From: an uncultured delta proteobacterium
GTDB taxonomy: Bacteria; Desulfobacterota; Desulfobacteria; Desulfobacterales; Desulfosalsimonadaceae
Assembly: GCA_963826785.1 (NCBI GenBank)
Contig: CAWGYD010000001.1
Coordinates: forward strand, 320,001 to 384,000
Direction of reading: 5' to 3'
DNA length: 64,000 bases
Part shown: positions 1 to 53,698 of the stretch, piece after piece
Position numbering within the stretch: the first letter of the stretch is position 1
Layout of the letters: the number at the start of each line of letters is the position of its first letter
Position numbers and translations under genes: made by a program
The notes under the pieces: model-generated
The model's database searches: none
Told to the model about the DNA's origin: nothing
Seen by the model: only the letters and a program-made list of their open reading frames with translations

Positions 1-100
1 CTGGAAATCCACCATTTTTCCGATGATCTTCAGCAGTAATCGCATTTTTTAATCCAGCTTTCGCATTCAGCGTATTGTCTTTGCTTCACTAACCTCACGT

Positions 101-379
101 TCCGGCCTTAACCGCTGTTCGGCTATTATTTCAAGTCCGGCATCGGCGAGCCACCGTTTTCAGCTTCTATGACAAAAATCTCAAATCCGTTCCTCATCTG
201 CCCGTTCACGGCTTGGCGGGGACGCAAACGGAAGACTGGTCCGCTCAATGATCTTTTTGCCTGCTTTTACAGCTGATTAGCTGTTTATTTCAAGCCAGGT
301 ATCGGCGGGCCGCCGTTTTTCGGCTTCTATGGCAAAAATCTCAAATCCGCTCCCCAGCCCCCCGTTCACGTCCCCGCCA
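101..379. repeat. Tandem degenerate copies of a ~165 bp palindromic element (complete copy 214-379, partial copy ~101-213)
   Basis: 214-379 has perfect 11-bp terminal inverted repeats TGGCGGGGACG...CGTCCCCGCCA. 128-210 is a diverged direct copy of 287-370 (TTTCAAG..ATCGGCG..GCTTCTATG[A/G]CAAAAATCTCAAATCCG..CCCGTTCACG). Confidence 0.7.
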
Positions 380-635
380 GGAGTCGCTTTGCACAAGGTT
401 GCCGTTTCATTTGTTTTCATAATGTATACTTCTGATTGCTGCTCATTTCGACTTGCTGGATTCCGCTTAAAATTGCCGGAATGACAAATTGTGATTGATA
501 TCAACCCTGTTATAAAAGCGATGATGCCCTTGAGGGGTTAAAGGGAGGTGTCCCGAGGGCACCCATTGCTTCCAAAGAACTCAATTTGGCAAACAGATTA
601 AGTGACTTCATTTTTTTGGTTATCCGCAGGTCCAA

Positions 636-795
636 CACCCCCCTTGGTCCCCCCTCGCAGGGGGGGAATAAAAAAAGGAGGCCTTCCTTGTATGGGGAAT
701 TTGATCGTAATTTCAATTCCTAATCCCCCCTTGAGGGGGGCAGGGGGGTGTACCGACGGCGACCGTTGCGATTCAAAAGTTCCTTCCTGTAAAAA
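636..795. repeat. REP-like G/C-run palindromic repeat (CCCCCCTTGAGGGGGG family), copy 1
   Basis: 699-751 matches 32703-32755 at 52/53 nt, and 775-795 is identical to 32773-32793. It contains CCCCCC-TTGA-GGGGGG hairpins. Confidence 0.85.
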
Positions 796-856
796 CACCG
801 CGCAGCGGGGTCGGGAGCTTTTTACTAAGAGCTGCTGGATTGCTGCGATTGACCCA

Positions 857-1047
857 TGACGGGGTGGTGAACAGGGGCATGGCAAGCGAATTTGATATTT
901 TTGCCGAAAAGCCGGGGGAGTTGATTCGCGTTAAGAATTTCTCATTGTCTGAGGGCGGATGCCCGAGTTTGAGAAATTTAGCGGATCAACTGCCCCGGCC
1001 GGCAAAAAGATCACTGAGCGGCCAGGCCCCTGTTCGCCATCCCGTCA
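857..1047. repeat. ~190 bp imperfect palindrome (MITE-like or structured element), inverted homologue of 214-379
   Basis: 857-883 and 1021-1047 are inverted repeats (24/27), and pairing continues inward to a GGGC-GGAT-GCCC apex. The reverse complement of 857-905 matches 331-379 at 39/49 ungapped. Confidence 0.75.
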
Positions 1048-1118
1048 GCCACCATCCCATAACCCATAAGTTAAATGACCTTCGCTAAATATATCGAAAA
1101 AAAGCCCGCTCCATTGGC

Positions 1119-2549
1119 TTACCGACTCCCGGAGTCTTTGGCATATTGCCGGATCATGCCGGTGGCGTACTTCAGGTTGGCCATTGCCACATTGTAATTG
1201 TAAAGCGCTTCGATATAGTTTCCCTGATTCTCGCCATATTTTTCAATGGCCCGGAGCATGTTTTCGGCGCTCCCGATGCCCATGTCGAAATCCGCAAACG
1301 CGGACACCACCCATTTCCTGGAAGCCACGGCCGCATCGTGATATGTTTTTGCGCTTTTCTTCCACTCGATGATTTCCTGGTATGCACTGGCCACCTGGAT
1401 GGGGATATTCATCTCGGCGGTTTTCCTGGAATAGAGAAGTTTGCTGTATTCCGCCCGGGCCTGAGCGATGCGTGCTTTTTTAATGCCGAAATCAAAATCC
1501 CATTTGGCGCCGGCCACGACTCCGGCATAGGCGTGGTTGAACTCGTCATCGATGTAGGCATTGTCCAGGTGGTCACGGCCGGGCGCCCCGGCCAGGGAGC
1601 CTTCCAGGGCCACGAAAAACGACGGGTAGAGTTCGCTGACGGCCGCGGCGGTCTGATATTCACTTGCCTTCAGGGCCGCATCGAGCTGCTTGAATTCCGG
1701 CCGGTTGGAAAGGGCATTGTGAACGAACGTATTGACATCTTCCAGTTCTCCTTTCCTGATTTCAAGCGGTTCTGCGGCGACTTCCAGGGGAGCGCCGGGG
1801 GGGAGGCCCAGCATGGCGCGCAGGGCGAACGTGGCGACTTGGACCCCTTTTTCGGCCTCGGCCTGGGAGCGGATGATGCCGGCGCGGAACGCATCGACCA
1901 TGTACAGGTCGCTCTCGCTCACGCTGGCTGCGCCGGCTTCCATGAGGCGTTTGATGCGCTGGCGGGCATCATCGAAGAACGCTTCCGCATCTTTGGCCGT
2001 TCCGATTCCCGATCGGGCGAGAATGAGCGCATAATACAGCTCGGCCACCTTCAGGGCGATTTCGTCTGCGGCTTTGTCCATCCCCAGCGCCTTGGCGGCA
2101 ACCCCGCTTTGCGCCGCCGCGCGCCCATTGGAGAGTTTACCGAAGGTATACAGGGGCTGGGTGACGGTGAAATCGAGCCGGCCGAAGACGCCGATGCTGG
2201 AGAGGCTCAAGCCCGGGGAAGGATCGTATATCCGGTTATTGACGATGACCGGTTCTTCGGCATCGTTGACCGGGCCGACCACGGCCGTGCTCTCCATCCG
2301 GGGATAGTAGGCCGCAACCACCTGATCCAGGGTACTCTGGGCCGCGGCCAGTTCACTTCTGGCCGCGCCGGCTTCCGGGCTTGCGGCAACGGCCTTTTCG
2401 ATCAGCTGCTCAAGATTCAGGCCGGCGGTTTGCTTTGCGGCTTCGGCTGCGTCCCCGCTTCTTGGCCGGAAAAGAAACATGCTGCCTGCGATAAGTCCGC
2501 ACAGAATGAAAATTCGCACAAAATGCAAATGTCCGCACTGTTTCATCAT
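1119..2549 (-). CDS. TolC-family outer membrane efflux protein
   Basis: 476 aa with a signal peptide and two OEP repeats (A..YYP, TQPLYTFGK, AL.NRPE, ELYP, C-terminal YNYNVAMANLKYATG). Confidence 0.9.
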   Translation of the reverse strand: MMKQCGHLHFVRIFILCGLIAGSMFLFRPRSGDAAEAAKQTAGLNLEQLIEKAVAASPEAGAARSELAAAQSTLDQVVAAYYPRMESTAVVGPVNDAEEPVIVNNRIYDPSPGLSLSSIGVFGRLDFTVTQPLYTFGKLSNGRAAAQSGVAAKALGMDKAADEIALKVAELYYALILARSGIGTAKDAEAFFDDARQRIKRLMEAGAASVSESDLYMVDAFRAGIIRSQAEAEKGVQVATFALRAMLGLPPGAPLEVAAEPLEIRKGELEDVNTFVHNALSNRPEFKQLDAALKASEYQTAAAVSELYPSFFVALEGSLAGAPGRDHLDNAYIDDEFNHAYAGVVAGAKWDFDFGIKKARIAQARAEYSKLLYSRKTAEMNIPIQVASAYQEIIEWKKSAKTYHDAAVASRKWVVSAFADFDMGIGSAENMLRAIEKYGENQGNYIEALYNYNVAMANLKYATGMIRQYAKDSGSR

Positions 2550-2584
2550 GGCACTGAATCTCCTTCTCCTGCCGGAGCAAGCGG

Positions 2585-3568
2585 TTAGAATTGCGTCTGC
2601 CTGTTCCTTTCAACCAGCAGCGTGGCATATAAAAACAGGCCGGCACCCGCCCAGAAAACCTGCGCCAGCCGCAAGACGACGCCATATGCCAGGCCCAGCG
2701 ATGCGGAATATCCGAGGGCCTTGAAGGCGACGACCCGGATCCCCTCCAGGGCGCCGATATCGGTTGGAATGGCAAAAATGACCAGATCCATCCAGCTGCC
2801 CAGCAGCCAGATGCCCGCGGCCGAATAAAAGGAGGACTCACGGGCGAGGAGCGTCAGAAAGAGCCAGCACTGGAGAATTCCACAGGTCATGGCCGCCATG
2901 TGGAACAGGATGGCCGCGGGCAGTCCGCCCGGATGGTCCCTGTAAAAACTTTTAAGGGCCAGATCCACCCGGTTCATTTGCAGGGATGCCTTTTGAATGA
3001 TGCTTCCGCCGATCCGGCGTCTGACCATCCAGCGGATGACCATCCCCAGCCTGCCGGTTTTCTGGATCACCAGAAAAGCGATGATCCCCAATCCGATGAG
3101 GATGCTGACCGCAAACATCAGGGACCACACCCCGAAGGGAAGGGCGACATTCCACAGGATGGTGAGCGAACCGATAATGACCAGGATCAGCTGCGCCATG
3201 GCATAGGCCAGCCGCCCGACGATGACGGCGGTGGCGGCTTCCGGGCCCTTATGGGCGCCGGCAAGGAGCGTGGCCTTGGTGACCTCCCCACCCAGGGCGG
3301 CAGTGGGTGTCAGATAGCTGATGGCATTGCCGGCAAGGAAAATCCGGTAGATCTGAAAATAGGGCAGATCCCGGTAAGGGTCCGACAGGCAGTATCGCCA
3401 TCCCATGGCGAACAGGGCGCCGGACGCCCCTTCCAGCAGGAAGAAAGGGATGAGCCCCCAGCCCAGCATGGAAAGATCGCTGTAGAGTTTTCCAAACCCG
3501 ATGGACCAGATCAGCAGGACCAGGAGGAGGGCGCCCAGCAGCATGCTGACCTGGTGAAATCTTTTCAT
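2585..3568 (-). CDS. Lysylphosphatidylglycerol synthase TM-region (flippase-like) membrane protein, paralog 1
   Basis: Multi-TM protein with GNAISYLTPTAALGGEVTK, IPTDIGALEG and LRL motifs. The ATG at 3568 overlaps the upstream stop (ATGA). Confidence 0.85.
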   Translation of the reverse strand: MKRFHQVSMLLGALLLVLLIWSIGFGKLYSDLSMLGWGLIPFFLLEGASGALFAMGWRYCLSDPYRDLPYFQIYRIFLAGNAISYLTPTAALGGEVTKATLLAGAHKGPEAATAVIVGRLAYAMAQLILVIIGSLTILWNVALPFGVWSLMFAVSILIGLGIIAFLVIQKTGRLGMVIRWMVRRRIGGSIIQKASLQMNRVDLALKSFYRDHPGGLPAAILFHMAAMTCGILQCWLFLTLLARESSFYSAAGIWLLGSWMDLVIFAIPTDIGALEGIRVVAFKALGYSASLGLAYGVVLRLAQVFWAGAGLFLYATLLVERNRQTQF

Positions 3569-4675
3569 CGGCTTTTTCCGGACTGAAAAAGCGCTCCTGT
3601 GTGCCGGCCCGTTTCGACCGGGGCGCCCCCCAGGCGATGCGACCGGTATGCAAGCTCCGTAAGATGCGTGCACCATCCGGCCTCGGTGAAATTGACGCCC
3701 CTTTTACGGGGATTTCTGACCTCCTGGTAGAAATTTTCCGCCACCGCTTTCATCCAGGCCGGGTGGTGGGACCCGGCCGAAAGGGGCGCGGGGAAATCAT
3801 ACCGGACGATAGGAGTTGCGGCCCGGGTTTCAAGGAGCAGATGGTTGTCATTGATCCGGAGGAGACCCGCATCCCCGAAGATGACGCCTTCGTTTCGCCT
3901 GCAGTCGGCGCGCCGGGTGAGGTGAAGCCGGGCCTCGGCGGTGGCAAATTGCAGGTAAAGATCGACGGTTTCTTCAATGCCGGAATCGTCTTCTACCGCA
4001 AAAGGCCATTTGCGCGCTGACAGCCGACGGAAAGTCGTCCAGGAGGGCCATGATGAGATAAATGCCGTGCCAGCCGTGGTCGAGAAGGATGCCGCCGCCG
4101 GCAGTGGCGGCGCATTGCCGCCAGTCCGAGATGCCGCCGCCCGGACCGGGCGTCCGGAAAACCGATAGCGAAACAGACTCGATATTGCCGATTTTTCCGG
4201 CCTTCACGATTTCAGCGGCTTTGATCCACAGCGGGGCATATTTCCAGTTGTTGACCACGAACAGGACCCGGTCTGCGGCATCGGCTTCCGCCCGAAGCCG
4301 GGTCAATCCCTGCCGGGAGGGGAGCAGGGGCTTTTCACAGAAAACATGGATGCCGGCCCCGCATGCCTTGCGCATCAAATCCTCGTGGAAACAGGGCGGG
4401 GCGCAGATATCCACGAAGTCCGGGCGGTCTAAAGCCATCAGGCTTTCCAGGTCGGAATGGATGACCGCTTCCGGGAGCAGGCGTTTGGCCAGCCCGACGC
4501 GTTCGGCAAGGGGCTCCACCACCGCATCGATTCGAAAACGCGGGTCTTGCAGCCAGACCGGAAGGTGGGCCTTAAGCGCCACGCCCCCGAAACCGACGAT
4601 GGCCCCGCGCAGCGGTTTGATCGAATGGGGTTTTTCAGATGGCATTTTCGAATTTTTTCTCTGTTGAGAATTCAT
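3565..4675 (-). CDS. Gfo/Idh/MocA family NAD(P)-dependent oxidoreductase (apparent +1 frameshift near 4000)
   Basis: Motifs GFGGVALKAH, HVFCEKPL and GGGILLDHGWH. Removing one T from the T run at ~4000-4003 continues the frame (AVEDDSGIEETV...GSHHPAWMKAVAENF) to the stop at 3565. Confidence 0.85.
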
Positions 4676-6019
4676 TTATGCCTTGTATGGCATCGTTCTG
4701 GCCGTAAAATCAAATACGTCATCCAGGATCTGCAGCCCTTCCTCCGCCTCCGCAAGCGTCAGGGTCAGGGGCGGATTGATCCGGAATCCGGCCTTGTAGT
4801 TCATGCAGACCATGCCCCGGGCGAGGGTTTCCAGAAAAATCTGCCGGGTGATGTCCCTGTCCAGCGGTTCCCGGGTTTTCCGGTCTTTTACCATCTCCAC
4901 CCCGATCAGGAGGCCGCGGCCGCGGACGTCTCCGATAAACTCGTATTTTTCCCGCATCCGGATAAGGCCTTGAAGCAGGTGGGCGCCGATGACCCGGGAA
5001 TTTTCCACCAGGGCGTCATTGACGATGGTCTGGATGGTTGAAAGGGCCGCCGCGCTGGCCAGGGGGTTTCCCCCGTAGCTGCTGGAAGATGAACTCGGCT
5101 TTGCAAAGGGAAGGCTCGACGTGATCTCTTGGGTGGAAATCAGGGCGCTGATGGGAAATCCGTTCCCCATTCCTTTTCCGACGGTCATGATATCCGGGCA
5201 GACGCCCGTGTGCTCGCATCCGAACATTTTCCCGGTGCGGCCGAACCCGGTGATCATTTCATCGGCAATCAAAAGCGCGCCGTGCTCGCGGGCGATCTGG
5301 GCCAGTCCGGGAAGAAATTCCGGGGGCGGGATGATGTTTCCGGCGGTTCCCTGGATGGGCTCCACGAGGATGGCCCCCAGGCTTCCGGCGGTGCTGTTCT
5401 TGATGACCTCCCGGACAAAGTCGAGGCAGTAGAGTCCGCACCCGGGGTATTGCATCTTGAATACGCATCGGTAGCAGTCCGCATAGGGGGCCAGGTGAAG
5501 ACCCGGATGCAAAACGCCCCAGTCTTTTTTAAACGGATCGCCGATGAGCCCCAGGACCCCGCCTGTTTTTCCATGGAATCCCCCCCAGAAACTCAGAACT
5601 TCGAATTTTTTCCGGGCGGATTTGGCCAGCCGGAGGGCGGCCTCCACCGCCTCTGCGCCGCCGCTGTAAAGCTGTATCCGGTTGAGGTCCGGCGGGGTCA
5701 GGGATGCGATCAGGCAGAGCAGGTCGGTCCGGCTTTCTGAGGTGAAGCTGCCCACGGTGATTTTGTCCAGCTGGTCTTTTAGCGCGGCGATATAGGCCGG
5801 ATGGGAGTGCCCCAGGCTGCACACCCCCACCCCGGCCATGAAATCAAGATAGGTGCGCCCCTCCATATCCTCCAGGTGACGGCCATCGCCCCTGCGGATC
5901 ACCAGCCGGGAAAGCTGGGCGACTTCCTGCAGCCCGGGGGAGATGAGGGCCTGTTCCTTTTGAAACAGGTATTCGGATGACTGGGGGGGAAACAGTTCCG
6001 GAAAATTATGAAATTTCAT
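4676..6019 (-). CDS. Class III PLP-dependent aminotransferase
   Basis: Motifs YLDFMAG, SGGAEAVEAA, FHGKT, EPIQGTAG, LLIADEMITGFGRTG, DIMTVGKGMGNG and YGGNPL. Likely start ATG at 6019. Confidence 0.93.
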   Translation of the reverse strand: MKFHNFPELFPPQSSEYLFQKEQALISPGLQEVAQLSRLVIRRGDGRHLEDMEGRTYLDFMAGVGVCSLGHSHPAYIAALKDQLDKITVGSFTSESRTDLLCLIASLTPPDLNRIQLYSGGAEAVEAALRLAKSARKKFEVLSFWGGFHGKTGGVLGLIGDPFKKDWGVLHPGLHLAPYADCYRCVFKMQYPGCGLYCLDFVREVIKNSTAGSLGAILVEPIQGTAGNIIPPPEFLPGLAQIAREHGALLIADEMITGFGRTGKMFGCEHTGVCPDIMTVGKGMGNGFPISALISTQEITSSLPFAKPSSSSSSYGGNPLASAAALSTIQTIVNDALVENSRVIGAHLLQGLIRMREKYEFIGDVRGRGLLIGVEMVKDRKTREPLDRDITRQIFLETLARGMVCMNYKAGFRINPPLTLTLAEAEEGLQILDDVFDFTARTMPYKA

Positions 6020-6839
6020 TGCAAACGCCTTTGCGTGCATTGTTGCGCTCAAGTTGATGGACAATCGCCCATGCGGCGGATTCCCGGCACAGGGAGAATG
6101 TCGGCCAGGCATTCAAGTCGATGAGCATCCAGGTCCCATCCGCGGCGAGAATGGCATCACCGCCATAGATATCGAGCCCCACGGCCCCGGCGGCGCTTCT
6201 GGCCGTTTCGGCCAGCTGCCCGGCCAGGGAGGTGATATCGGTTCCGGAGCCGGGCAGAAACGCCCTGAAGAAGCCGCCGGGGGCCACGCCCACGCCGTAA
6301 AATTTGGCGCAGGGGCCGTCCACGTGGGCCTGGACGAGCACATGATCGATTCCCTGCCTGCGGAAATGATCGATCGCGCAGGAGAATTCCGAACAGGAAT
6401 CGATTCTCGACACGTCACCGGGGCCTAAAGCGTGCTGATCCCCCCGCTTTATCCAGTAGCCGTATGGCTGCCTGAAAAATCCGGAAGCCTGCATGGTGCG
6501 GATGGATTCGATGCGCCCGGCCGGCATGGGGATTTCGGACCGGGAAAAGATTTCAAACAGGGACTTGCGGCAGCAGTTGCGGACGGCGGCGGGCGAGTTG
6601 AATACCGGTATGCCGGACCCGGCGGCCTGTTCGAGGACCCCGAGGCAATGCTCGGACTGGGCCATGTTCAGAATCAGATCGGCCGTTTTGATTTGGCTGC
6701 TCATCATCTCCGCGGACAGTGCAGCCGTTTTATAACCGCGGATGGAGAGGGTATATAGAACGGCATCGAGAATGGCCGCATCCTCGCGGACTTTTCCAGG
6801 AGAAAAGATCGGTTCCCTGTAGATGCCGATGATTTTCAT
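6006..6839 (-). CDS. ATP-grasp fold protein, ITPK1 (inositol phosphate kinase)-like / RimK-like
   Basis: Motifs FNSPAAVRNC, WIKRGD, LVQAHVDG..KFYGV and GLDIYGGDAI...LIDLNAWPTF. Overlaps both neighbours. Confidence 0.75.
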   Translation of the reverse strand: MKIIGIYREPIFSPGKVREDAAILDAVLYTLSIRGYKTAALSAEMMSSQIKTADLILNMAQSEHCLGVLEQAAGSGIPVFNSPAAVRNCCRKSLFEIFSRSEIPMPAGRIESIRTMQASGFFRQPYGYWIKRGDQHALGPGDVSRIDSCSEFSCAIDHFRRQGIDHVLVQAHVDGPCAKFYGVGVAPGGFFRAFLPGSGTDITSLAGQLAETARSAAGAVGLDIYGGDAILAADGTWMLIDLNAWPTFSLCRESAAWAIVHQLERNNARKGVCNEIS

Positions 6840-7549
6840 GACCGTTCACCGATTTGACGCAGATAGCGCTCCGCCCTGGCGATATCTTGCGGGTGATCCA
6901 CATCGATGGTCGTGGAAACCGGAAGACCATACAGGGGGTGGCCGCATTCGGGCAAAAGGGCCAGGAAATGGCGAAGCGCACTCAGCTCCCGGGTGCGGGA
7001 TGGGGGCACTGCGGAGAAGATTTTTGGCGAAAAGTAGTAAAATCCGGCGGTGGCATAAGGTGTTTTGCCGGCGGCCGCATCCCCCATGGCAATGATCCGG
7101 CCCCGGGGGTCGATTTCCGCCCATAAGGGTTTGTCGTCATCCGTGCAGGTGGTAAGGGCCAGCATGCCTCCGGCGCCATTCATCCGCCTGCCGGCCGCCA
7201 TCAGATTTTCCAGCGCATGGAAGGGAAATACGGCATCCACGGTCATCATCACGAAGGGGCCGCCCGACAGAAAGGGGGCCAGGGCAAGCAGGCTCTCCAT
7301 GGAGTTTTTAGTGGTCTTGACCAGCAGTTCCAGGGGAAGGGGCCATGAGCGGTTGCGGAGATATTCTGAAACCGCGGGGTGGATGTCATTTACGATGCAG
7401 GCAACGGATTCGGCGCCCAGGCGGCCGGCCGCCCGGATCAGGCGGGCGATCATCGGCTCGCCGCACAGGGGGACCAGGGGTTTGGGGATGCGGACGCCGC
7501 CCCTTGAAAGCCTTTCTCCGATTCCGGCGGCGATGATCCCCACTTTCAT
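6836..7549 (-). CDS. NTP transferase (nucleotidyltransferase; candidate inositol-phosphate cytidylyltransferase)
   Basis: IIAAGIGERL...PKPL and C-terminal IDVDHPQD. ATGA overlaps at both ends. Confidence 0.88.
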   Translation of the reverse strand: MKVGIIAAGIGERLSRGGVRIPKPLVPLCGEPMIARLIRAAGRLGAESVACIVNDIHPAVSEYLRNRSWPLPLELLVKTTKNSMESLLALAPFLSGGPFVMMTVDAVFPFHALENLMAAGRRMNGAGGMLALTTCTDDDKPLWAEIDPRGRIIAMGDAAAGKTPYATAGFYYFSPKIFSAVPPSRTRELSALRHFLALLPECGHPLYGLPVSTTIDVDHPQDIARAERYLRQIGERS

Positions 7550-8244
7550 GCCAGCACCGCCGCCAGGTCCGCCAGGCTTGAAATGCGTGCATCCGTTTGC
7601 GCGGCCAAAAGCGGTGTCCGCGGATTCGGTCCGGGAAGCCATACGGTTTTCATGCCCAGTTCCCGGGCCGGAACCATGTCCCTGTTATAGGAGTCGCCCA
7701 CGAACACTACCTTGGATGCGGGCAGCCGCAAGGCATGCAGTGCGATCTGGAAAATGCGGTGATCCGGCTTCTCCACCCCCGCGGGGACCGAATCAACGAT
7801 GACCTCAAGGGAATCCGACAACCCCGCCTCATGGCACACCACGGCCGCATTGCCGTAAAAATTGGATACCACCCCCAGCCGGCAGCACTTCTTCAACTCG
7901 TTTAGGAAAGTGGCGTTTCGCCGCAGAAACCGCTCCGATTTTGAGCAGAAGGAACGGGCCATGGCGGTTTCAGCCCCGGCTGTATCCAGGCCCAGAATCG
8001 AAAACTGCGCCCGGATGTGATAATCCACCAGGGGGCGCAGGCCCGAGCGGAGAAGGGCGGGATTTTTCTTGCAGCTGCTGCCCGCTTCATAGAAAGCGTC
8101 TTTGATCCGGGCATGCGGCAGCATCAGGCCGGCTTCTTCGTAAAGGGCGTAGAAGCGGTCGAGCCAGTGCTCCCCATCGGAATCCAGGGTGCCTCCGAAA
8201 TCAAAGAGGACGCCCTTCACCTCATGAAACTTCCCGCTGAGCAT
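7546..8244 (-). CDS. HAD-superfamily hydrolase (phosphatase)
   Basis: Motif I LFDFGGTLD, motif II VVSN, EKPD and FVGDSYNRD. Confidence 0.9.
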   Translation of the reverse strand: MLSGKFHEVKGVLFDFGGTLDSDGEHWLDRFYALYEEAGLMLPHARIKDAFYEAGSSCKKNPALLRSGLRPLVDYHIRAQFSILGLDTAGAETAMARSFCSKSERFLRRNATFLNELKKCCRLGVVSNFYGNAAVVCHEAGLSDSLEVIVDSVPAGVEKPDHRIFQIALHALRLPASKVVFVGDSYNRDMVPARELGMKTVWLPGPNPRTPLLAAQTDARISSLADLAAVLA

Positions 8245-9418
8245 GCTTTTCCTCTTGCGCCGCTGCATGGACGGGCCGTTGCGCCAACTTCCGGGGCGGA
8301 ATCACTTCTTTTACCCCCCTGTCCCTTTTGCCCAGGATGAAGGCCTCGGTCATGCGATAGGCCTCGTCATCGGTGTACTGGCGGGGGGGGTGCTTCATCA
8401 GGTAAGCCGAAGGCGCGTACAGGACGCCGCCTTCCCCCCGGTCCAGGGCCAGCTTGCAGAAACGGACCGCATCGATCACCGTTCCTGCCGAATTGGGAGA
8501 ATCCTCCACCGACAGGCGCAGTTCCAAATTCATGGGCACGTTGCCGAAAAGCGCCCCTTCCATGCGGATGAAGCAGACTTTGTTGTCCTTTTGCCAGGGC
8601 ACATAGTCGCTCGGGCCGATATGGATGTTTTCGGCTTCCAGGCGGTGCGCTGCCACCGATTGAACGGCTTCGGTCTTTGATTCCTTCTTGCTCATGAGCC
8701 GCAGACGGTTGAGCATGTTTAAAAAATCCGTATTGCCGCCCGTGTTGAGCTGGTAGGTCCGCTCCAGTTTCACCCCGCGCTTCCGGAACAGATCGGTCAG
8801 CGTGCGGTGAATGATTGTCGCTCCCATCTGGGATTTGATGTCATCGCCGATCAGCGGGATATTTTGTTCCTCAAAGCGTTTTGCCCAGGCCGGGTCACTG
8901 GCGATAAACACCGGAATATTGTTCACAAAGGCGGTGCCGGCGGCCAGGGCGCATTCCGCGTAGAAACGGGTCGCGTTTTCGGATCCCACAGGCAGATAAT
9001 TGAGCAGGATTTCAGCCCCTGATCGGACGAGGACATCGACAACTTCATCTTGATCCGGTTCGGGCAGGGCGGCCGGCAGAAAGGTGCGGTTTGCGCCATA
9101 ATCATGCATGTGCTCGGAGCAGCCGTCCAGGATACGGCCCATGCGGACCCATGTTCCGTTTGAATCGATATCGCGGCAGAAGACTTTGGTGCAGTTGGGT
9201 TCCGCAAAGACTGCTTCTGCGAGCGGCTTTCCAACCTTTCGCCGGTCGATGTCAAAGGCCGCCACCACCTCCACGGCATAGGGTTTGAATCCGCCGATGT
9301 CCCAGTGCATCAGGCCGACGGCATCCTCCGCCCGGCTGCTGCGGCAGTAATTGATCCCCTGGATCAGGGAACTGGCGCAATTTCCGATACCAACGATAGC
9401 GATTTTAATATTTTTCAT
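8222..9418 (-). CDS. ino1: Myo-inositol-1-phosphate (inositol-3-phosphate) synthase
   Basis: Motifs IVGIGNCASSL, NYLPVGSE, IGDDIKSQMGAT, YQLNTGGNTDFLNM, SKKESKT, GPSDYVPW and EDSPNSAG. Confidence 0.97.
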   Translation of the reverse strand: MKNIKIAIVGIGNCASSLIQGINYCRSSRAEDAVGLMHWDIGGFKPYAVEVVAAFDIDRRKVGKPLAEAVFAEPNCTKVFCRDIDSNGTWVRMGRILDGCSEHMHDYGANRTFLPAALPEPDQDEVVDVLVRSGAEILLNYLPVGSENATRFYAECALAAGTAFVNNIPVFIASDPAWAKRFEEQNIPLIGDDIKSQMGATIIHRTLTDLFRKRGVKLERTYQLNTGGNTDFLNMLNRLRLMSKKESKTEAVQSVAAHRLEAENIHIGPSDYVPWQKDNKVCFIRMEGALFGNVPMNLELRLSVEDSPNSAGTVIDAVRFCKLALDRGEGGVLYAPSAYLMKHPPRQYTDDEAYRMTEAFILGKRDRGVKEVIPPRKLAQRPVHAAAQEEKHAQREVS

Positions 9419-9579
9419 GCCTTTACCTTTTCCTTTGTCTCATTTACCAGTAGCTGACAACTTTAGAAAAAATAACCGCGTCCGGCAGAAACATAAATAA
9501 AGAGAACACTTTATTTTTGCAGTAATCAGACTTGATGTGTGAATGTACCGGTCTGCACCTTCAATGCCGGGGGGCCGGA

Positions 9580-10551
9580 TTACCGGAATGCATCCGCGGC
9601 CATGCCGTAAAACCGTTTAAGGCTCCAGGGCTCCTGGGCGGCCCCCCGGCAGGAATACCAGCAGCTGCCGCAGTCGGCCGCCTTGAAAAATCCGTTGCGC
9701 CACTGGCTGAAATGCCCGGCGATCCGATGATCGGAGCAGCGCTTGATCATTCCGTCGGGGGTGACCTGGAGCCAGTTTTTTCCGGCCGTGCATCCGGGGA
9801 TAAAGCGGTTTTGAAAAAACTCGGGCACCCGGTCCAGGTAATCGTCACCCGTTGTCACATTTCCCGTTTCCCTTTTCATCTGCTTTAAAGTTTCGATCAT
9901 CTTCTCAAGAGAAGAGAGTTCCGCGTCAGGGACCATGTGATGTTCATTGCCGATCCGCCAGCAGTTGTATGCGCTCAGGGATATTTTTACCCCCATGTCC
10001 GCACTTTTTTTCACGAGCTTGGGAATGTCGGCATAGTTCTCCCGCTTGATGACCACATTGAAACACAGATTGACGCCGGCCGCCCGCAGCTGCGGGACCA
10101 CGAAGAAAATCCGGTCCGTCAGGCCAGGGATCCCTCTTTCCCGGTCGTGCCGCTCGTCGGGATAATCCAGGGAGATGGACATTTCATCCAGGCCGGCCTC
10201 CCAGGCATCGAGACCCCCCTGGAAGGTCAGAAGCGATCCGTTGGTGATCAGTGAAATAAATAAAAAACCGAAGGAACTCCGCAGGGAGGCGATTAATTCC
10301 GGCAGGTCGCTCCGCAGAAAGGGCTCACCGCCGGTGATGCTCACCGACAGCGGATCCAGTGCGCGGACCACCGGGACATAATTGTTCAGTTCCGGAGGGG
10401 CCTTTTCTTTCCAGTAATCGCAGAAATCACATCGGGCGTTGCACCGCTTGGTGACCTCCAGGTTGATGTTCAAGAGGCCCCCCTTGAGCAGATACCGGAA
10501 AAATTTATATCCCCCCGCCGACATTTCCGTAAGGCTGAGTTTTCGGGACAT
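9580..10551 (-). CDS. Radical SAM protein with C-terminal twitch/SPASM-type cysteines
   Basis: CNARCDFC, TGGEP, TNG and ISLD motifs, plus CTAG...PDG..KRC and CGSCWYSC. Confidence 0.92.
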   Translation of the reverse strand: MSRKLSLTEMSAGGYKFFRYLLKGGLLNINLEVTKRCNARCDFCDYWKEKAPPELNNYVPVVRALDPLSVSITGGEPFLRSDLPELIASLRSSFGFLFISLITNGSLLTFQGGLDAWEAGLDEMSISLDYPDERHDRERGIPGLTDRIFFVVPQLRAAGVNLCFNVVIKRENYADIPKLVKKSADMGVKISLSAYNCWRIGNEHHMVPDAELSSLEKMIETLKQMKRETGNVTTGDDYLDRVPEFFQNRFIPGCTAGKNWLQVTPDGMIKRCSDHRIAGHFSQWRNGFFKAADCGSCWYSCRGAAQEPWSLKRFYGMAADAFR

Positions 10552-10566
10552 CTGATACTCCCTTTG

Positions 10567-11570
10567 CTAATTGTCTTTCAATGAGGGCTCCTCCGAGAGA
10601 TTGCGCCCGCTTTCGGCCAGAAGCGCCCAGTAGATGAAAAGCCCGATGCCGGCCCAGAAGATCTGCTCCACCCGAAGGGTCACCCCGTAGCTCAACCCGA
10701 TGGCCGATCCAAATCCCAGCAGCGTAAACACGATCACCCGGCTGGCTTCCAGGACCCCCAGATTCATGGGAATGGGAAAACTCAGCAGGTCCAGCCATGA
10801 GCCGAGAAACCACACCCCCGCCGCCAGGTTCGGGGAAGAACTGCCGGTGAGCAGGTAGAGAAAATACCAGCTCTGCAGGATGCCGCACGTCATCCCGAGA
10901 ATATGCCAGATCATGGACAGGAAAAGATCATAGGGATGCTCCCGGTAGAAAAGTTTCAGCGCGGCGTCCACTCGGGTTAACCCGTCCGCCGATTTTCGCA
11001 GGGTTTTCCCCCCGATCCGGTGGGCGGCCATCCACCGGACCAGCGCCCCCAGGCGGCCGTATTTCTGGACGGCGAGAAACCCGAGAATGCCGGCTCCCAA
11101 AAACACGCTGCCGGTGAGCATGGCCGCCCAGACCCCCGCGGGCAGCTGGACCCGCCACAGGATGATCAGGGATCCCGCCCCCACAAAAAGCAGTTTGGAC
11201 ATGGCGTATGAAAGCTTTCCGATGATCACGCCGGTGACGGCTTCGGGTCCTGAATGATTGAGCGCCAGAAGCGTGCCCTTGACCACCTCACCACCCAGGT
11301 CCGCGGTGGGGGTCAGGTAGCTGATGGACCCTCCCGCCAGCCGGATGCTGAAAATCCGGGAAATGGACAAGTCCCTGTGGGGACCGGAAAGGCAGTGCCG
11401 CCAACCAACGCGTGAAAGAGCTCCGCCAGGCCTTCTATGATGATCAGGGGGACAAGTCCCCATCCCAGAATCGAAAGCTCCCGCAAAAGTTCCCCGGGGC
11501 CGATCGTCCAGATCAGGGCCATCAGGAGAAAAACCCCGATGAGGATGGCCAAAACATGAAATCGCTTCAC
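10567..11570 (-). CDS. Lysylphosphatidylglycerol synthase TM-region (flippase-like) protein, paralog 2 (apparent frameshift near 11405)
   Basis: GTG start (MKRFHVLAILIG...). One missing G in TTG(G)GTTGG restores GWRHCLS...ISYLTPTADLGGEVVKG. Collinear with 2585-3568. Confidence 0.85.
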
Positions 11571-12838
11571 CCGGCTTCCCCTGCGGCTTCAACGGCCATG
11601 TCGCCCTGCCTGCGGTGCTGGTACAAACGCATTCCGTGCGCTGCGGCCGTCAGGGCGGCCCATGCGGCGGCAATGCCAAGCGTGTGAACGGGAAACCCGA
11701 GCGAAAATCCGATGATGAACATGAAAATGTAGATGTTTCGCCTTCCCGCGATCCGCCTGAATCTGGCATCGAAGGGGCTGAAAAGATCGATGCTTTTCCC
11801 GAACCACTTCTGGGCCAGCGTGTAAAAAACGTTATCCGCCGTATCGGAGAGGATCAGCAGCCCCGCCAGCAGGGGCGGCCCAATCCCCATCGGGGAGAGC
11901 CCGGCGCCCAGGGCCGCGTACAGGCTGTTTTCGCAGAAATAATCGATGAGCGACTCCTGCTCGCCGATCCGGGTGAAATACAGCTTGGTGCGCGCCAGTT
12001 TGCCGTCCACGCCGTCAAGGATCTGCAGCGCGAAAGCGCAGAATGCGCCGGATAGATAGAATCCGTGATAAAAAAGCCACGCCGCGGTGCCCGCAGCAAA
12101 GATGCCGAAAAGGGTCACCATGTTCGGCGTGACAGGCGTGTTTAACAGCAGAAGCGTCAGAAAATTTTCAAACGGCGGATCGATGAATTCGGCGGGCAGG
12201 TCCATTACTTGTTTCTGCTGGCTGGCGATCAGCACCCGGGTGGCGTGCCGGGCCTGTTCCTTTGAGTGCACCTCCATGAAATAGGGGGGCTGGGGCCCGC
12301 GGATGTCGGCGTTGAAGGGATCGATCATCTCCGGATAGAGCGCGTCCACTGATCCGGCTATGCCGCCGGGGCCCTGTTTGCACAGGCGCTGAAAATCCGC
12401 CCTTTTGAAAAACCCCGCCCGGACTGTCGACGATTTGCGATCAGACGGGCTGATGCAGGCGACCACCGAAATCGGGGCGCGCAAGAGATGTTCAAAAATC
12501 CTTGGGTCAAACAGATGCGCCGCGTCGACGTACAGAAAATTTTCGGCCAGATGGGAAAACGGGCCCATGGCGGCCCAGATGTCCTTTTCGACGATGATCG
12601 GCCACAGGCGCAGGCCCCCCACCCATCTTTCAAACCCGCCCAGGTCCTTTTCGCCATCGACCAACAGGTATCCCTCTTTCAATCCCAATGCCCTGAGATG
12701 ATAGAGGGTTCTTATGACAAGGGGAATGCCGCCCACGCTTTCCCAGGCCCCGGGCCGGCCGGCATTAATGAACATCAGGGGCCGCATTGGGCCTTTAAGA
12801 TCCTTTGCATGCGGATCTGGTTTTTCCGTAACTGACAT
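11567..12838 (-). CDS. CDP-alcohol phosphotransferase with degenerate N-terminal NTP-transferase-like domain
   Basis: TPNMVT and DGVDGKLAR...GEQESLID (CDP-OH-transferase motif variant). The N-terminus has VGGIPLVIRTL, typical of IPCT/DIPPS-like fusions. Confidence 0.88.
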   Translation of the reverse strand: MSVTEKPDPHAKDLKGPMRPLMFINAGRPGAWESVGGIPLVIRTLYHLRALGLKEGYLLVDGEKDLGGFERWVGGLRLWPIIVEKDIWAAMGPFSHLAENFLYVDAAHLFDPRIFEHLLRAPISVVACISPSDRKSSTVRAGFFKRADFQRLCKQGPGGIAGSVDALYPEMIDPFNADIRGPQPPYFMEVHSKEQARHATRVLIASQQKQVMDLPAEFIDPPFENFLTLLLLNTPVTPNMVTLFGIFAAGTAAWLFYHGFYLSGAFCAFALQILDGVDGKLARTKLYFTRIGEQESLIDYFCENSLYAALGAGLSPMGIGPPLLAGLLILSDTADNVFYTLAQKWFGKSIDLFSPFDARFRRIAGRRNIYIFMFIIGFSLGFPVHTLGIAAAWAALTAAAHGMRLYQHRRQGDMAVEAAGEAG

Positions 12839-18953: not shown

Positions 18954-19904
18954 ATGACACCACAAGCCAACGCAAACGTTGAAGCATTTAAAATCCGGGG
19001 CCGCGGTTTTGCCGGCGGCGGCGGAAAAGGCGTTCAGATGAAGAAATTTGCGCCCTACACCGACTTTGTTTTAAAGCATCTGGTGGGGCAGGGGGAGATC
19101 ATCAATCCGGAGGCCCTGCTCCCCACCGACGGCCGGCCGGTGGTGGCGGTGGTTTCCCATGGCCCCGGCGCCGCGTGGATTCCCCTGGTGGCACTGGTGG
19201 GGAAATATTTCATCGACAACGGCTTCGGCGATATCGTCGGCGGCATGTACCCGCACAAGGCCCTGTTTCTGATCCCCGGCTTGAAAGACTACTACCGGCG
19301 GGTGCTGGGGACCCCCACCGACGTCCAGACGGTCGATGATGTGGCCGCCCTGTTGAAAAACAGGGAAATCGGGCTGACCGGCACCGCGCCCGAAGGGGCC
19401 AACTGCCTGCTCTCCTTTAGCGATTACGTGGCCCCGTTTCGTTCCAAAGGGATGATTGCGGCCGCCATCAAGGCGGATGCCGCCGTCTGCCTGATGGCCC
19501 ACCAGGGCGCGGAATCGTGGAACATCCGGATCAATCTGCCCCTGGGCCTGAGTATCCCCCGGACAAACGGGCTGCGGGGGATTAACATTACCCTGCCGCC
19601 ATATCGCAAAATTAATCATTATATGGTGATGTGCAGAAGGTATCAACCCTCCATTTCATCGGCGGACCTCGCCGCGTGTTCAAAGGATGCCGCCCGGCAT
19701 CTCATCGGCATGGAAATCGAAACCATGCGCAGGCAGATGAACGCCATGACCGATGAATTAAAAGTCATGATGACCGGCAAAACGGTTGAGGAAACACGGC
19801 AGAGAAGGCAATCCGCCCGCCTGCGGCGGCAGGAGAAAAAGGCCATGATCGCCGCCGCGCTGTTTCCGGATGATGAAGCATACCTGATGCCAGTTCACCA
19901 CTAA
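18954..19904 (+). CDS. Divergent lysophospholipid acyltransferase-like protein
   Basis: RBS AAGGAG, VVSH motif, APEG motif and F..GMI.AAI. Fold assignment is tentative. Confidence 0.55.
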   Translation: MTPQANANVEAFKIRGRGFAGGGGKGVQMKKFAPYTDFVLKHLVGQGEIINPEALLPTDGRPVVAVVSHGPGAAWIPLVALVGKYFIDNGFGDIVGGMYPHKALFLIPGLKDYYRRVLGTPTDVQTVDDVAALLKNREIGLTGTAPEGANCLLSFSDYVAPFRSKGMIAAAIKADAAVCLMAHQGAESWNIRINLPLGLSIPRTNGLRGINITLPPYRKINHYMVMCRRYQPSISSADLAACSKDAARHLIGMEIETMRRQMNAMTDELKVMMTGKTVEETRQRRQSARLRRQEKKAMIAAALFPDDEAYLMPVHH

Positions 19905-19932
19905 ATTGTTGAGATGAAAAGGAGTTTTGTCA

Positions 19933-20908
19933 ATGAACGTATCGCCGCCAACCATGGTTGAATCCGGCCAGCATCTTTTCAACGGCGCCCTGATGGGCAT
20001 GGCCGCCCCTCTGCGCAAATTCGTTTACCCGGAAGTCGGGATTTCGAAAACCGCATCCGACCGCCTGGCCGAAGGCATCAGCGATGTGATCGGCCACCGG
20101 ACCGAGGAATGGACGGTGGCGCCCCAAAATAAAGCGGCCATGGAGCGGCAGATGATGGTGTGGGATATCCTTCTGGACTATTATTTCCGCTCCGAGACCA
20201 CCGGGTGGGAGCGCCTGCCGGCGCGACCCGTCCATGCTCGTCGGCATCCATTCCGGCACCTGGCTGACCATGGACGCCTGGACCCTGTGCGCGGAATGGT
20301 ACCGGCATTTCAAGGAAAAGCGCATCCTTCACGGCACCGCCCATGATGTGCTGATGGCCCTGCCGGTGCTCGGGAGCTATTTCCGCAATGTGGGGGTGAT
20401 CCCGGCCAAACGCGAAGCCGTGGGCGCAGCGTTTGCGGCCGGCCACGACGTGGTCATCTGGCCGGGCGGGGAGGTGGATGCCATGCGCTCCTGGAAAAAG
20501 CGCGATACGGTCGTGCTGGGCGGCCGCAAGGGGTTTATCCGCCAGGCGATCCGATCCGGCGTGCCCATCGTGCCGGTGGCCACCATCGGCGGGCATGACA
20601 CGGTCTTTGTACTGTCCGAATGCCGCAAACTGGCTAAAATGCTTCGCCTGAAAAAATTGCTGAGATGCGATATCGCCCCCCTGGTTTTGGGTTTTCCGTT
20701 CGGCCTGACCCTCGAAGCCTTTCCCATGCACATTCCGCTGCCGGCCAAGATCCGCACCGAAATTCTCGATCCCGTGGACATCGACGATGACCCGGACCGG
20801 GCCAATGACGGCAGATACGTGGACGGCAAATACAGGGAAATCGAAGACCGCATCCAGGACGGGGTCAACCGCCTGGCCAAAAAGCGGCGGGGTTGGGTGT
20901 TCAGATAA
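19933..20908 (+). CDS. Lysophospholipid/DGAT2-like acyltransferase (apparent frameshift near 20228)
   Basis: Removing an extra C in CGACCCGTCC joins YFRSETTGWERLP to MLVGIHSGTWLTMD, WPGGEVD, GRKGFIRQAIRSGVPIVPVA and PLPAK. Confidence 0.85.
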
Positions 20909-25594: not shown

Positions 25595-26392
25595 TTGAAA
25601 CCGTTGAACCGCTTTAAAATCCTCGTTTTTCGACGAAGCCGTCCGCTCCTTTGCCGGCCACGGAATATTCTGCCGTGGAGCGCCCTCGCATTGCTCATCG
25701 TCCTGGGGGGCTCCGCCGCCGCCTGCGGCAGCCTGAAAACGACACCTCCAGAACCATCTGATACGCTCATGAATGCCACACTGCCTTCCGATGCGCTCAT
25801 CCGTCGCGATGACCGCGGCATTGTCTATTACGTGAAGGGGGAAAATCTTTCCGGCCCGCTTGAATCAAGCCCCCGATTCCGGAAGCTCCAGTCGGAAAAT
25901 AATCTGGCTGAAATTTCGCTTTTCTTTATTTCAGCCCACCACGATCTGTTTGCCCTCTCCCGGCCGGAAGCGGAACTGACCGTCCTTTCGGCGGTGACCG
26001 ACGACCTCGGCCTCTCCCATGTCAAATTCCAGCAGGTATACAGAAAAATTCCCGTATGGGGATCGGAAATGATCGTTCATCTGGATCGCGAAAACCGGGT
26101 CTACCTGGTCCAGGGCCGGCATATTCCGACGCCGGATGGGATCCGCCTCCAGCCCGATATCACCGCGGCCGATGCTGCGCGGATCGTGGCCAGAGACCTT
26201 GATGCGCACTCCTCAAAATGTCCGATGTGCCGCACCGAGTTGGTCATCTACACCCCGGAAGCGACGGGGCGTCCCTGTCTGGCCTACCGCATTTCCGCGT
26301 CCATGCGTCCGGATGCGGGGTGGATGTATTTCATCGACGCGTCCACCGGTGAAATCCTTGAAAAGCTCTCCACCGTCCGGACGGGCGGATAA
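25595..26392 (+). CDS. Stand-alone thermolysin-type propeptide (FTP + PepSY) lipoprotein
   Basis: Lipobox-like AAAC, DDLGLSHVKFQQVYRKIPVWGSEMIVH (FTP) and LAYRI...YFIDASTGEIL (PepSY). No catalytic domain; start uncertain. Confidence 0.75.
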   Translation: MKPLNRFKILVFRRSRPLLCRPRNILPWSALALLIVLGGSAAACGSLKTTPPEPSDTLMNATLPSDALIRRDDRGIVYYVKGENLSGPLESSPRFRKLQSENNLAEISLFFISAHHDLFALSRPEAELTVLSAVTDDLGLSHVKFQQVYRKIPVWGSEMIVHLDRENRVYLVQGRHIPTPDGIRLQPDITAADAARIVARDLDAHSSKCPMCRTELVIYTPEATGRPCLAYRISASMRPDAGWMYFIDASTGEILEKLSTVRTGG

Positions 26393-26413
26393 TTATCCAA
26401 TCCAGGTTCTTTA

Positions 26414-50197: not shown

Positions 50198-50325
50198 TCT
50201 GCGCCGGAATATCGACAACGGCAGCCGGCGGGGCTGAGCAATAGTTCTCCGAGTGCGGCTGTAATGGTGATATGATCCTTTCAACTCATGTGGTACTGTT
50301 TACAAAAATGGCGAAAGGGATGATC

Positions 50326-51111: not shown

Positions 51112-51275
51112 GGTTATCGCTCAGGGGATAGGGGATAATATGCGGATAACTTGTCAGCATCTGTTTAATATTGCCTCTCAAACCCCCTGAACACTGGATC
51201 TGGCAATCCCCACCCGCGATAGATTTCCAGGAATGCCGGTCCATAGCCGGAATATGCATCGGGAGCAAAACATCT

Positions 51276-51420
51276 TTAAGTCAATGGCCACTCGACCGTG
51301 ATGGCGGTTCCATGGCCGGGCCCGGATTCAATCTTAAAATTTCCGCCTGAAAGCTCAACGCGCTCTCTCATGCTGGTCAACCCGAGCCCTTGCCGATGAT
51401 TTTCCATGTCAAATCCCACC
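51276..51420 (-). pseudogene. C-terminal remnant of a NarX/DegS-type histidine kinase HATPase domain
   Basis: GFD...GLGLTSMRERVELSGG.F.IES.PG.GT.I with no upstream kinase sequence. Confidence 0.7.
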
Positions 51421-52614: not shown

Positions 52615-52670
52615 AAGGCTTGGTTTTTAGGGAGTTTCTGTATCGGATGGGATCTGCTTGGATTGTAATT

Positions 52671-53688: not shown

Positions 53689-53698
53689 AAATTATTGC

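Follow-up and report, generated by a model that had tools for sequence, protein, structure and literature searches.

A conserved gene core in Desulfobacterota, often found near hopanoid genes, likely builds the head group of a lipid type not yet described

We examined a 64,000-nucleotide stretch of DNA from an uncultured delta proteobacterium of the Desulfobacterales (contig CAWGYD010000001.1, positions 320001-384000; hereafter the window), in which a first-pass annotation had marked eleven co-oriented genes as a candidate system for synthesis and export of a modified inositol lipid. All eleven were indeed found on the minus strand at 1119..12838. They are built around a smaller conserved core, which likely makes the head group of a lipid type not yet described. 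The features are listed here in the order of transcription, followed by the left edge of the window; fractions of loci refer to the 80 homologous loci introduced below.

11567..12838, minus strand: cytidine diphosphate (CDP)-alcohol phosphotransferase CDP1, with an extra N-terminal domain (PF01066 over cut-off; 12/80 loci)
10567..11570, minus strand: HpnL-like LPG_synthase_TM (flippase-like) protein, copy 2, frameshifted (both PF03706 and TIGR03476 below cut-off)
9580..10551, minus strand: radical SAM protein, accessory (PF04055; 7/80 loci)
8222..9418, minus strand: Ino1, inositol-3-phosphate synthase (PF01658, 123.7 bits)
7546..8244, minus strand: HAD-IA phosphatase, core (Pfam/NCBIfam; 71/80 loci)
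6836..7549, minus strand: nucleotidyltransferase, core; predicted CTP:(amino)inositol-phosphate cytidylyltransferase (72/80 loci)
6006..6839, minus strand: ATP-grasp protein, core; predicted cyclitol(-phosphate) kinase (from model, motifs, fusions and Bacteroidota homologues)
4676..6019, minus strand: class III pyridoxal phosphate-dependent aminotransferase; predicted inosose aminotransferase (PF00202; 66/80 loci)
3565..4675, minus strand: Gfo/Idh/MocA dehydrogenase (Gfo), frameshifted near 3993 (47/80 loci)
2585..3568, minus strand: HpnL-like LPG_synthase_TM (flippase-like) protein, copy 1 (PF03706, 90.4 bits)
1119..2549, minus strand: TolC-family outer-membrane protein (PF02321)
46..1118, no strand: 1073-bp tolC-hpnN gap with a genome-dispersed repeat (about 568-832); relatives lack the gap
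1..45, minus strand: start of an hpnN-like MMPL transporter gene, which runs out of the window leftward

Pfam and NCBIfam assigned the families CDP-OH_P_transf, Radical_SAM, Inos-1-P_synth, HAD, NTP_transf_3, Aminotran_3, GFO_IDH_MocA and OEP, and LPG_synthase_TM twice. The ATP-grasp gene had no match at the thresholds used; its earlier identification was borne out by an AlphaFold model, which shows the ATP-grasp fold. Intergenic distances in the order of transcription are -4, +15, +161, -23, -4, -4, -14, 0, -4 and +35 nt. Six of the ten junctions thus overlap, one abuts and the remainder measure 15, 161 and 35 nt, in agreement with the overlaps listed in the first-pass annotation. A scan for promoters and terminators performed no better than shuffled sequences (4 vs 5.3 and 22 vs 16.0 +/- 4.4, respectively).

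Two genes are interrupted. Compared with intact relatives, the Gfo gene switches frame near 3993, and the upstream flippase-like gene (copy 2) does so near 11406-11409 in comparison with an intact relative. An independent short-read contig from another run, more than 99% alike, has one base fewer at 3993, and the Gfo break is an assembly error. The two DNA runs cover small pieces only and the break at 11406-11409 lies outside their coverage; it is likely an assembly error too. Elsewhere in the assembly, frame switches appeared in 7 of 91 orthologue tests with a same-family genome as reference, some of which may be shadow frames. Pseudogene decay of the cassette was rejected, since the 3993 break is missing from the independent contig and two broken genes in eleven fit the background of 7/91 (P ~0.2).

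Homologous loci were collected by scanning GTDB genomes with an ATP-grasp alignment; 413 were confirmed and the best 80, mostly from Desulfobacterales, Syntrophobacteraceae and Binatia, were analysed. Genes were counted by bit-score thresholds, and the counts are lower bounds because contig ends cut many loci. The nucleotidyltransferase was detected in 72 loci, the HAD phosphatase in 71, the aminotransferase in 66, any CDP-alcohol transferase in 55 and Gfo in 47, followed by HpnL-like proteins (25), HpnN (15), TolC (14), CDP1 (12), Ino1 (11) and the window-type radical SAM protein (7). The genes do co-occur in other genomes, in support of the first-pass annotation, and the core is widely kept. 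The full set of ten window gene types occurred in one locus of the 80; the eleven-gene set is a local arrangement around a smaller conserved core. The conserved unit consists of HAD, nucleotidyltransferase, ATP-grasp, class III aminotransferase and Gfo, and the order of its first four members is invariant across loci. Desulfoferrobacter suflitae, a cultured carrier strain, also has a homologue. Ino1, which had been counted as part of the local core, usually lies elsewhere in the genome: of 32 genomes selected mainly because they have no adjacent Ino1, 31 gave an Ino1-like match at another place (14 strong, 17 weak and partial).

Some loci depart from this arrangement. In five of the 80 (L026, L031, L035, L037 and L069) the ATP-grasp gene stands without other cassette genes in the fetched flank; two of these genomes have Ino1, HAD and nucleotidyltransferase genes together elsewhere (L085, L086), and the operon can therefore split. 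One genome harbours three ATP-grasp copies (L133, L143), two of them sharing one locus; one copy precedes a B12 radical SAM gene and one precedes an aminotransferase gene.

Finally, we looked for ATP-grasp, aminotransferase, squalene-hopene cyclase (SHC) and Ino1 in a single even sample of the phylum (301 genomes), counting ATP-grasp hits at E<1e-60 (nine weak matches with E>1e-10 were set aside) and aminotransferase orthologues at E<1e-100. ATP-grasp and aminotransferase were present in the identical 20 genomes, representing 10 families. SHC scored over cut-off in all 20 carriers, compared with 53 of the 301 genomes overall, and Ino1 was found in 19 of the 20, compared with 184 of 301. The 10 carrier families all fall within the 22 SHC-positive families (of 94). 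The nominal hypergeometric P for the SHC linkage is 3e-17 by genome and 7e-8 by family, both overstated because related genomes are not independent. Within one family (f14), SHC was present in 8 of 9 genomes, and ATP-grasp, aminotransferase and Ino1 in the same 3 of 9. On the scale of the locus, a hopanoid gene lay within 10 kb in 47 of the 80 loci and in 32 of the 44 full-length ones.

The genome studied here fits this association. Left of the first base of the window (contig 309864-320045) we found hpnN, hpnM, a second CDP-alcohol transferase, a B12 radical SAM gene, hpnJ, hpnI, hpnK and a gene for a small membrane protein. HpnJ and HpnK score over cut-off; for HpnN, HpnM and HpnI the named family is the best match, below cut-off. 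SHC and HpnH exceed their cut-offs on another contig of the same genome, next to HpnG- and HpnA-like neighbours named from sequence and position. In relatives, tolC stands directly before hpnN without the 1073-bp gap, and HpnN adjoins TolC in 13 of 15 TolC-bearing loci. The radical SAM gene comes after hpnN in several relatives and its PDB matches are of MoaA/PqqE type only; lacking an informative relative, it is therefore grouped with the hopanoid genes. TolC and the radical SAM protein, previously placed with the inositol system, thus both go with the hopanoid genes around HpnN. The HpnL-like copies, 54% identical to each other, reach 92.4 (copy 1) and 70.6 bits against TIGR03476, below the curated HpnL threshold of 195.65. 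As for sources of a lipid acceptor, the first-pass annotation had pointed to either serine palmitoyltransferase (SPT) or SHC. SHC is present, as described; a BioF/SPT search of the genome (87.8% complete) returned BioF and one weak partial match, and no SPT-like gene. A sphingolipid acceptor in this genome was judged unlikely, because no SPT-like gene was found. The hopanoid neighbourhood, overlooked in the first-pass annotation, is the strongest clue to the acceptor.

Several further observations concern this neighbourhood. The tolC-hpnN gap contains an element of about 260 bp with dozens of copies, 70-90% identical, on many contigs, one of them just upstream of shc (contig C3, 297752-298013), as well as a direct repeat at about 102-210 and 260-370; the element looks like a miniature inverted-repeat transposable element or a repetitive extragenic palindrome (REP)-like element. 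The second CDP-alcohol transferase and the B12 radical SAM gene (contig 314095-316656) are coupled, the latter being frameshifted, and are convergent to the genes on the hpnN/hpnM side. In 34 of the 80 loci this pair faces the HAD-nucleotidyltransferase-ATP-grasp core, more commonly than CDP1 occurs; the second copy may be the true core transferase and the B12 radical SAM protein a methylase. Genes beside shc on contig C3 (302987-311846) encode a second HpnI-like glycosyltransferase and, judged by sequence, an Mla-like ABC set; another frameshifted B12 radical SAM gene and a paralogue (27%) of the cassette radical SAM gene also lie there. A second, divergent Ino1 lies at contig C8 457182-459940, among open reading frames (ORFs) named from sequence as sugar-phosphate-isomerase-like, methyltransferase-like and UbiA-like.

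The relationship to Bacteroidota was revealed by the ATP-grasp gene. A search of a plasmid collection with this protein gave four matches, all from Bacteroidales. In three of them (Bacteroides finegoldii, Prevotella nigrescens and Parabacteroides distasonis), the matching gene is annotated as hypothetical and is flanked by those for the NTP transferase and the CDP-alcohol transferase, with HAD adjoining in all three and Ino1 in two; the fourth, unannotated record has the same gene set. Alignment of the homologues spans their full length, at 29-35% identity and with profile E 1e-61 to 1e-72. Their annotated surroundings include neither an aminotransferase nor a Gfo gene. In the three named species, the NTP transferase (32-35% identity, E 1e-37 to 1e-44) and HAD (28-34%, E 1e-21 to 1e-36) resemble those of the window as well; the core is homologous to the alternative inositol-lipid cluster of Bacteroidota. 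Ino1 of the window belongs to a different subtype from that of Bacteroides (25.5% identity), and the Bacteroidota CDP-transferases match the second, out-of-window copy weakly (E 1e-7 to 1e-12) and CDP1 not at E<1e-3. A flippase-like gene is overlapped into the B. finegoldii cluster. Both systems share Ino1, NTP transferase, HAD, LPG_synthase_TM, the unnamed ATP-grasp protein and, at the level of the Pfam family, a CDP-alcohol transferase. The cassette differs by its additional class III aminotransferase and Gfo, its longer and different CDP-transferases, its hopanoid locus and the lack of a detected SPT.

According to Heaver et al. 2022 (PMC9246714), the alternative cluster occurs in Bacteroides vulgatus and Prevotella with its functions unconfirmed; the NTP transferase, CDP-transferase and HAD are named, HAD being proposed as synthase of phosphoinositol-ceramide (PI-DHC), and PI-DHC is reported in B. 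vulgatus and P. veroralis, both alternative-cluster species. The term ATP-grasp occurs 0 times in that paper, and the gene is given no role there. It is nevertheless a constant partner: 57 of 60 longer ATP-grasp homologues contain a nucleotidyltransferase in the same chain, and further fusions were NTP transferase-ATP-grasp-CDP-transferase, HAD-NTP transferase-ATP-grasp, ATP-grasp-HAD and ATP-grasp-CDP-transferase. The family comprises 543 clusters (50% identity) at E<1e-30. Because it is found in Bacteroidota clusters without aminotransferase or dehydrogenase nearby and is fused to core enzymes, the ATP-grasp protein is a core enzyme and not a tailoring add-on. Of the division into core and tailoring genes in the first-pass annotation, the modified inositol lipid remains the best reading, while the assignment of ATP-grasp to tailoring and of Ino1 to an adjacent core (11/80) does not.

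Two side observations belong here. In one locus (L059:9992-12145), a single open frame of 718 codons runs through ATP-grasp and aminotransferase, with an internal Met where the two join; this is either a fusion or a lost stop. As for Supplementary Table 5 of PMC9246714 (130 of its 162 rows), the idea that the alternative cluster, as opposed to the BT-type one, occurs without Ino1 was not discriminated: among these rows the alternative trio without MIPS appears in 11 species, the BT-type trio without MIPS in 7 and both in 2, and Tannerella is not among the entries. The BT-type Prevotella without MIPS there (oralis, multisaccharivorax, buccalis, timonensis) keep the alternative NTP transferase; if ATP-grasp is kept with it, the protein could supply inositol phosphate from external inositol.

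The ATP-grasp protein is likely an inositol(-phosphate) kinase judging from its motifs, and a kinase activity of whatever kind we favour slightly over other functions. In 151 sequences, K131, K179-F-Y, D228 and D241-x-N243 are conserved at 98-100%, and the extended motifs K179-F-Y, G-G-D228 and D241-x-N243-x-W-P-S-F at 95-100% (D241 99%, N243 100%, K179 99%). They align letter for letter with K-F-Y and D-L-N-Y-L-P-S-F of plant ITPK4, and D-x-N and K-x-Y also occur in human ITPK1; this comparison rests on HMMER alignments. RimK has D-I-R and E-V-N at the aligned sites, and its F-R-S-N loop is not conserved in the family. In a profile search, the scores of PsnB, plant ITPK4, RimK and human ITPK1 lay no more than four orders of magnitude apart. 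A paper on ITPK1 names Lys157 and Gln188 and gives no Asp or Asn numbers. According to PMC6900528, inositol-3-phosphate is phosphorylated by ITPK1 and free inositol is not, and in Asgard archaea Ino1 is flanked by ITPK1 genes. The gene context points the same way. A GmhB-like bisphosphate phosphatase (best models GmhB and HisB) is added in 33 of the 80 loci; this GmhB/HisB-like HAD-IIIA gene directly follows the aminotransferase at L054:12239-12712 and in 32 other Binatia-type loci. NDP-heptose synthesis follows a logic of kinase, phosphatase and nucleotidyltransferase, and a kinase role would account for HAD as a constant partner and for the fusion with the nucleotidyltransferase, as in heptose activation.

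The structural comparison tells against a kinase. The AlphaFold model (64-row alignment, pLDDT 92; folding from the single sequence reached pLDDT 33) is nearest to ArgX, RimK and LysX (Z 21.6-23.2, root-mean-square deviation (rmsd) 2.6-2.8, about 250 residues aligned), followed by PPIP5K2 (Z 19.1) and four ITPK structures (Z 16.5-18.6, rmsd 3.2-3.7, 240-249 aligned). ITPK1 is thus not the nearest structure, and the ligases stand about 4 Z units above ITPK. The ITPK1 Pfam model PF05770 is the most frequent weak match (6 of 24 members at E<=0.1, best 0.0034), never over cut-off, and its hit in this genome is another protein; across nine genomes and two plasmid records it found the cassette gene weakly in two, other proteins in four and nothing in the rest. 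PF08443 scored 13.7 bits against a threshold of 21, a single Bacteroides sequence had no meaningful PDB match, and an Atlas search returned unnamed clusters plus one with RimK in 16% of members.

These results raise the alternative that the protein is a RimK/LysX-type ligase, adding an amino acid or another acid to the head group by an amide or ester bond, with the HpnL-like proteins flipping the acylated lipid in place of the tRNA-dependent MprF. This would take one step and fit either acceptor discussed below. Besides the nearest folds and the high ranks of PsnB and RimK in the profile search, it agrees with a suggestion, in PMC12324291, that HpnL joins carboxylates to hopanoid polyols. We consider it rather unlikely, as the gene also resides in Bacteroidota clusters lacking an aminotransferase, for which lipids with plain phosphoinositol are reported, is fused to nucleotidyltransferase and HAD, and carries D-x-N instead of E-x-N while missing the D-x-R and F-R-S-N loop of RimK. 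The protein is accordingly likened to the ITPK1 kinases of eukaryotes and Asgard archaea by its ATP-grasp fold, its D-x-N and K-x-Y motifs and its linkage to Ino1. It is not classed as an ITPK1 protein, being about 50 residues shorter, nearer to RimK/LysX in fold, never over the PF05770 cut-off and coupled to a nucleotidyltransferase, whereas ITPK1 makes soluble polyphosphates.

The remaining enzymes were compared with characterised relatives. The best PDB match of CDP1 is the CDP-inositol-using IPCT/DIPPS of A. fulgidus (4MND, E 4e-8). The CDP-alcohol motif DxxDGxxAR...GxxxDxxxD is canonical in the second copy and recognisable in 12 of 13 members of the CDP1 subfamily, in which the third Asp is Glu. 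As with IPCT/DIPPS and the IPCT/BEPIS of Rhodothermus marinus, a CDP-activated inositol donor is thus suggested; in contrast to them, the cassette contains additional kinase-like, phosphatase, dehydrogenase and aminotransferase genes, and it scores only 25-69 bits against NF041135 (IPCT/DIPPS; cut-off 580). The nucleotidyltransferase, not demonstrably of the IPCT type named in the first-pass annotation, reaches 25 bits there, below the GlmU/AglF models, and its nearest solved relatives are sugar-1-phosphate nucleotidyltransferases. That it cytidylylates inositol phosphate is a prediction we infer from gene context, because its 28 PDB matches (RmlA/GMPP/UGPase-type) include no IPCT. The aminotransferases form a distinct, highly conserved class III group. 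For an intact Gfo relative, the best NCBIfam model was IolG (inositol 2-dehydrogenase; 76 bits, cut-off 355). In PMC10949010, an inositol-phosphate synthase, a phosphatase, a Gfo dehydrogenase and an aminotransferase (Hyg18, Hyg25, Hyg17, Hyg8) constitute a proposed neo-inosamine route in hygromycin A synthesis, with Hyg17 verified as a myo-inositol dehydrogenase. The enzyme classes, at which level alone the two were compared, are those of the cassette; the antibiotic pathway differs in having no CDP activation or lipid transfer.

Taken together, we propose that the operon makes a CDP-activated, probably aminated inositol phosphate, which is moved as a phosphodiester head group onto a lipid alcohol, most likely a bacteriohopanepolyol (probability roughly 45%). 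Enzymes of the Ino1 family convert glucose-6-phosphate into inositol-3-phosphate; we infer all later steps. Ino1 would supply inositol-3-phosphate from glucose-6-phosphate, and the HAD phosphatase and the ATP-grasp kinase would shift the phosphate to a position accepted by the nucleotidyltransferase. Gfo would oxidise one ring hydroxyl and the aminotransferase would replace the oxidised position with an amine, leading to an inosamine on the free, phosphorylated or CDP-linked ring. The nucleotidyltransferase would then produce the CDP-cyclitol, a CDP-alcohol phosphotransferase would pass it to the lipid, the HpnL-like proteins would flip the product, and HpnN, HpnM and TolC would carry it to the outer membrane. 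The parts of this model are not equally secure. A CDP-cyclitol head group on a lipid is probable, and amination of the ring somewhat less so; the original idea of a lipid bearing a modified inositol as its head group remains the best reading, alongside the core homology and the co-occurrence of the genes. The SHC linkage in all 20 carriers and the interleaving with hopanoid genes favour a bacteriohopanepolyol, to which we give an even chance, the acceptor being the weakest link of the mechanism.

Besides the structural results for ATP-grasp, several points weigh against this reading. The Bacteroidota core serves ceramide and diacylglycerol, so the core needs no hopanoid and genomic linkage cannot name the acceptor. 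The cassette is missing from 33 of the 53 SHC-positive genomes, the linkage statistics are inflated by relatedness, and the 301-genome sample and the 80 loci probably overlap. Ino1 adjoins the cassette in few loci, and 61% of the sampled genomes of the phylum have it in any case. The solved relatives of the nucleotidyltransferase include no IPCT, those of the aminotransferase are gamma-aminobutyrate (GABA) transaminases, racemases and dialkylglycine decarboxylase rather than cyclitol enzymes, and those of Gfo are GFOR-type oxidoreductases.

If the acceptor is not a hopanoid, the same head group might be placed on diacyl- or dialkylglycerol, giving an amino-phosphatidylinositol analogue that partners hopanoids in ordered membranes, hence the gene clustering. 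To our knowledge, characterised CDP-alcohol transferases use only glycerolipid, ceramide or small polyol acceptors. The Bacteroidota core yields both phosphoinositol-diacylglycerol and PI-DHC, and the Rhodothermus BEPIS passes CDP-inositol to dialkylglycerol, as summarised in PMC4587543. We nevertheless hold a glycerolipid to be an unlikely acceptor: the aminated version is confined to SHC-positive genomes (20/20), its genes mingle in many different orders with hpnA/G/H/I/J/K/N/M and shc, and its CDP-transferases differ from the Bacteroidota enzyme, with the weak match to the second copy given above.

It could also be argued that Gfo and the aminotransferase act on the hopanoid side chain (HpnO-like amination or ribosylhopane reduction), the remainder handling inositol. 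HpnO belongs to the class III aminotransferases (IPR005814 in PMC12324291), and the pair occurs only alongside SHC and in none of the four Bacteroidota clusters. This is quite improbable, as the aminotransferase tracks ATP-grasp in 20 of 20 genomes, did not turn up in the remaining 33 genomes with SHC, and is translationally coupled to ATP-grasp, to the point of the shared frame in one locus. Moreover, one locus has a separate PigE-like class III enzyme, which we take to be of HpnO type, beside the cassette. A soluble compatible solute (di-myo-inositol phosphate, glycerophosphoinositol or an amino variant) with the membrane genes as bystanders, suggested by the IPCT/DIPPS match of CDP1 and by a di-myo-inositol phosphate gene set of Ino1, cytidylyltransferase, CDP-transferase and phosphatase, is very improbable given the flippase-like genes overlapped into this operon and into the B. 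finegoldii cluster, the SHC linkage (20/20) and the NF041135 scores far below cut-off.

The phosphodiester-linked head group on a hopanoid, as preferred here, can be set beside known hopanoid tailoring and transport genes (hpnI/J/K, hpnL, hpnM, hpnN, hpnO). Genes of this kind are physical neighbours of the cassette, which has two HpnL-like proteins of its own. In charge, a head group of the cyclitol-amine type is similar to bacteriohopanetetrol (BHT) cyclitol ether. In PMC12324291, HpnI/K/J build a cyclitol from N-acetylglucosamine by a glycosidic route, HpnL is of unknown function, and TolC is mentioned 0 times, an MlaA-like HpnS being described in that place; the cassette would instead add a phosphodiester-linked inositol, with TolC standing where HpnS is described. 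Our literature search, outside of which most subscription journals lay, brought up no account of the cassette, no hopanoid carrying inositol or phosphate and no ITPK1-like enzyme from bacteria. The boldest form of the proposal is an inosamine-phosphate hopanoid exported via HpnN-HpnM-TolC, with the ATP-grasp protein as the first bacterial ITPK1-like inositol kinase, the same enzyme serving CDP-inositol lipids of Bacteroidota including species without Ino1. In this complete form it is unlikely.

Apart from the cassette, the window contains an ORF without Pfam match followed by a DAGAT-family acyltransferase ORF, seemingly split (18954-20905), a protease of the thermolysin family (M4) whose propeptide motif recurs in a separate ORF ahead of it (25595-28312), and a region of 45-48% G+C, compared with about 56% elsewhere, around a phosphoesterase-family gene (50001-54000).

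For gut Bacteroidota, the current, unconfirmed model of the alternative inositol-lipid cluster omits a constant gene, ATP-grasp, and assigning it as the likely kinase would complete the route. It may also supply the inositol kinase missing in Tannerella forsythia, which, according to PMC4587543, makes inositol-phosphoceramide from external inositol and for which no kinase candidate was found there. Furthermore, HpnL-like genes are here coupled to a defined head-group pathway. If a phospho-aminoinositol hopanoid is indeed made, it would represent a new lipid class of anaerobic sediment and soil bacteria, relevant to the use of hopanoids as biomarkers; should the acceptor turn out to be a glycerolipid, the product would still be an undescribed amino-phosphatidylinositol.

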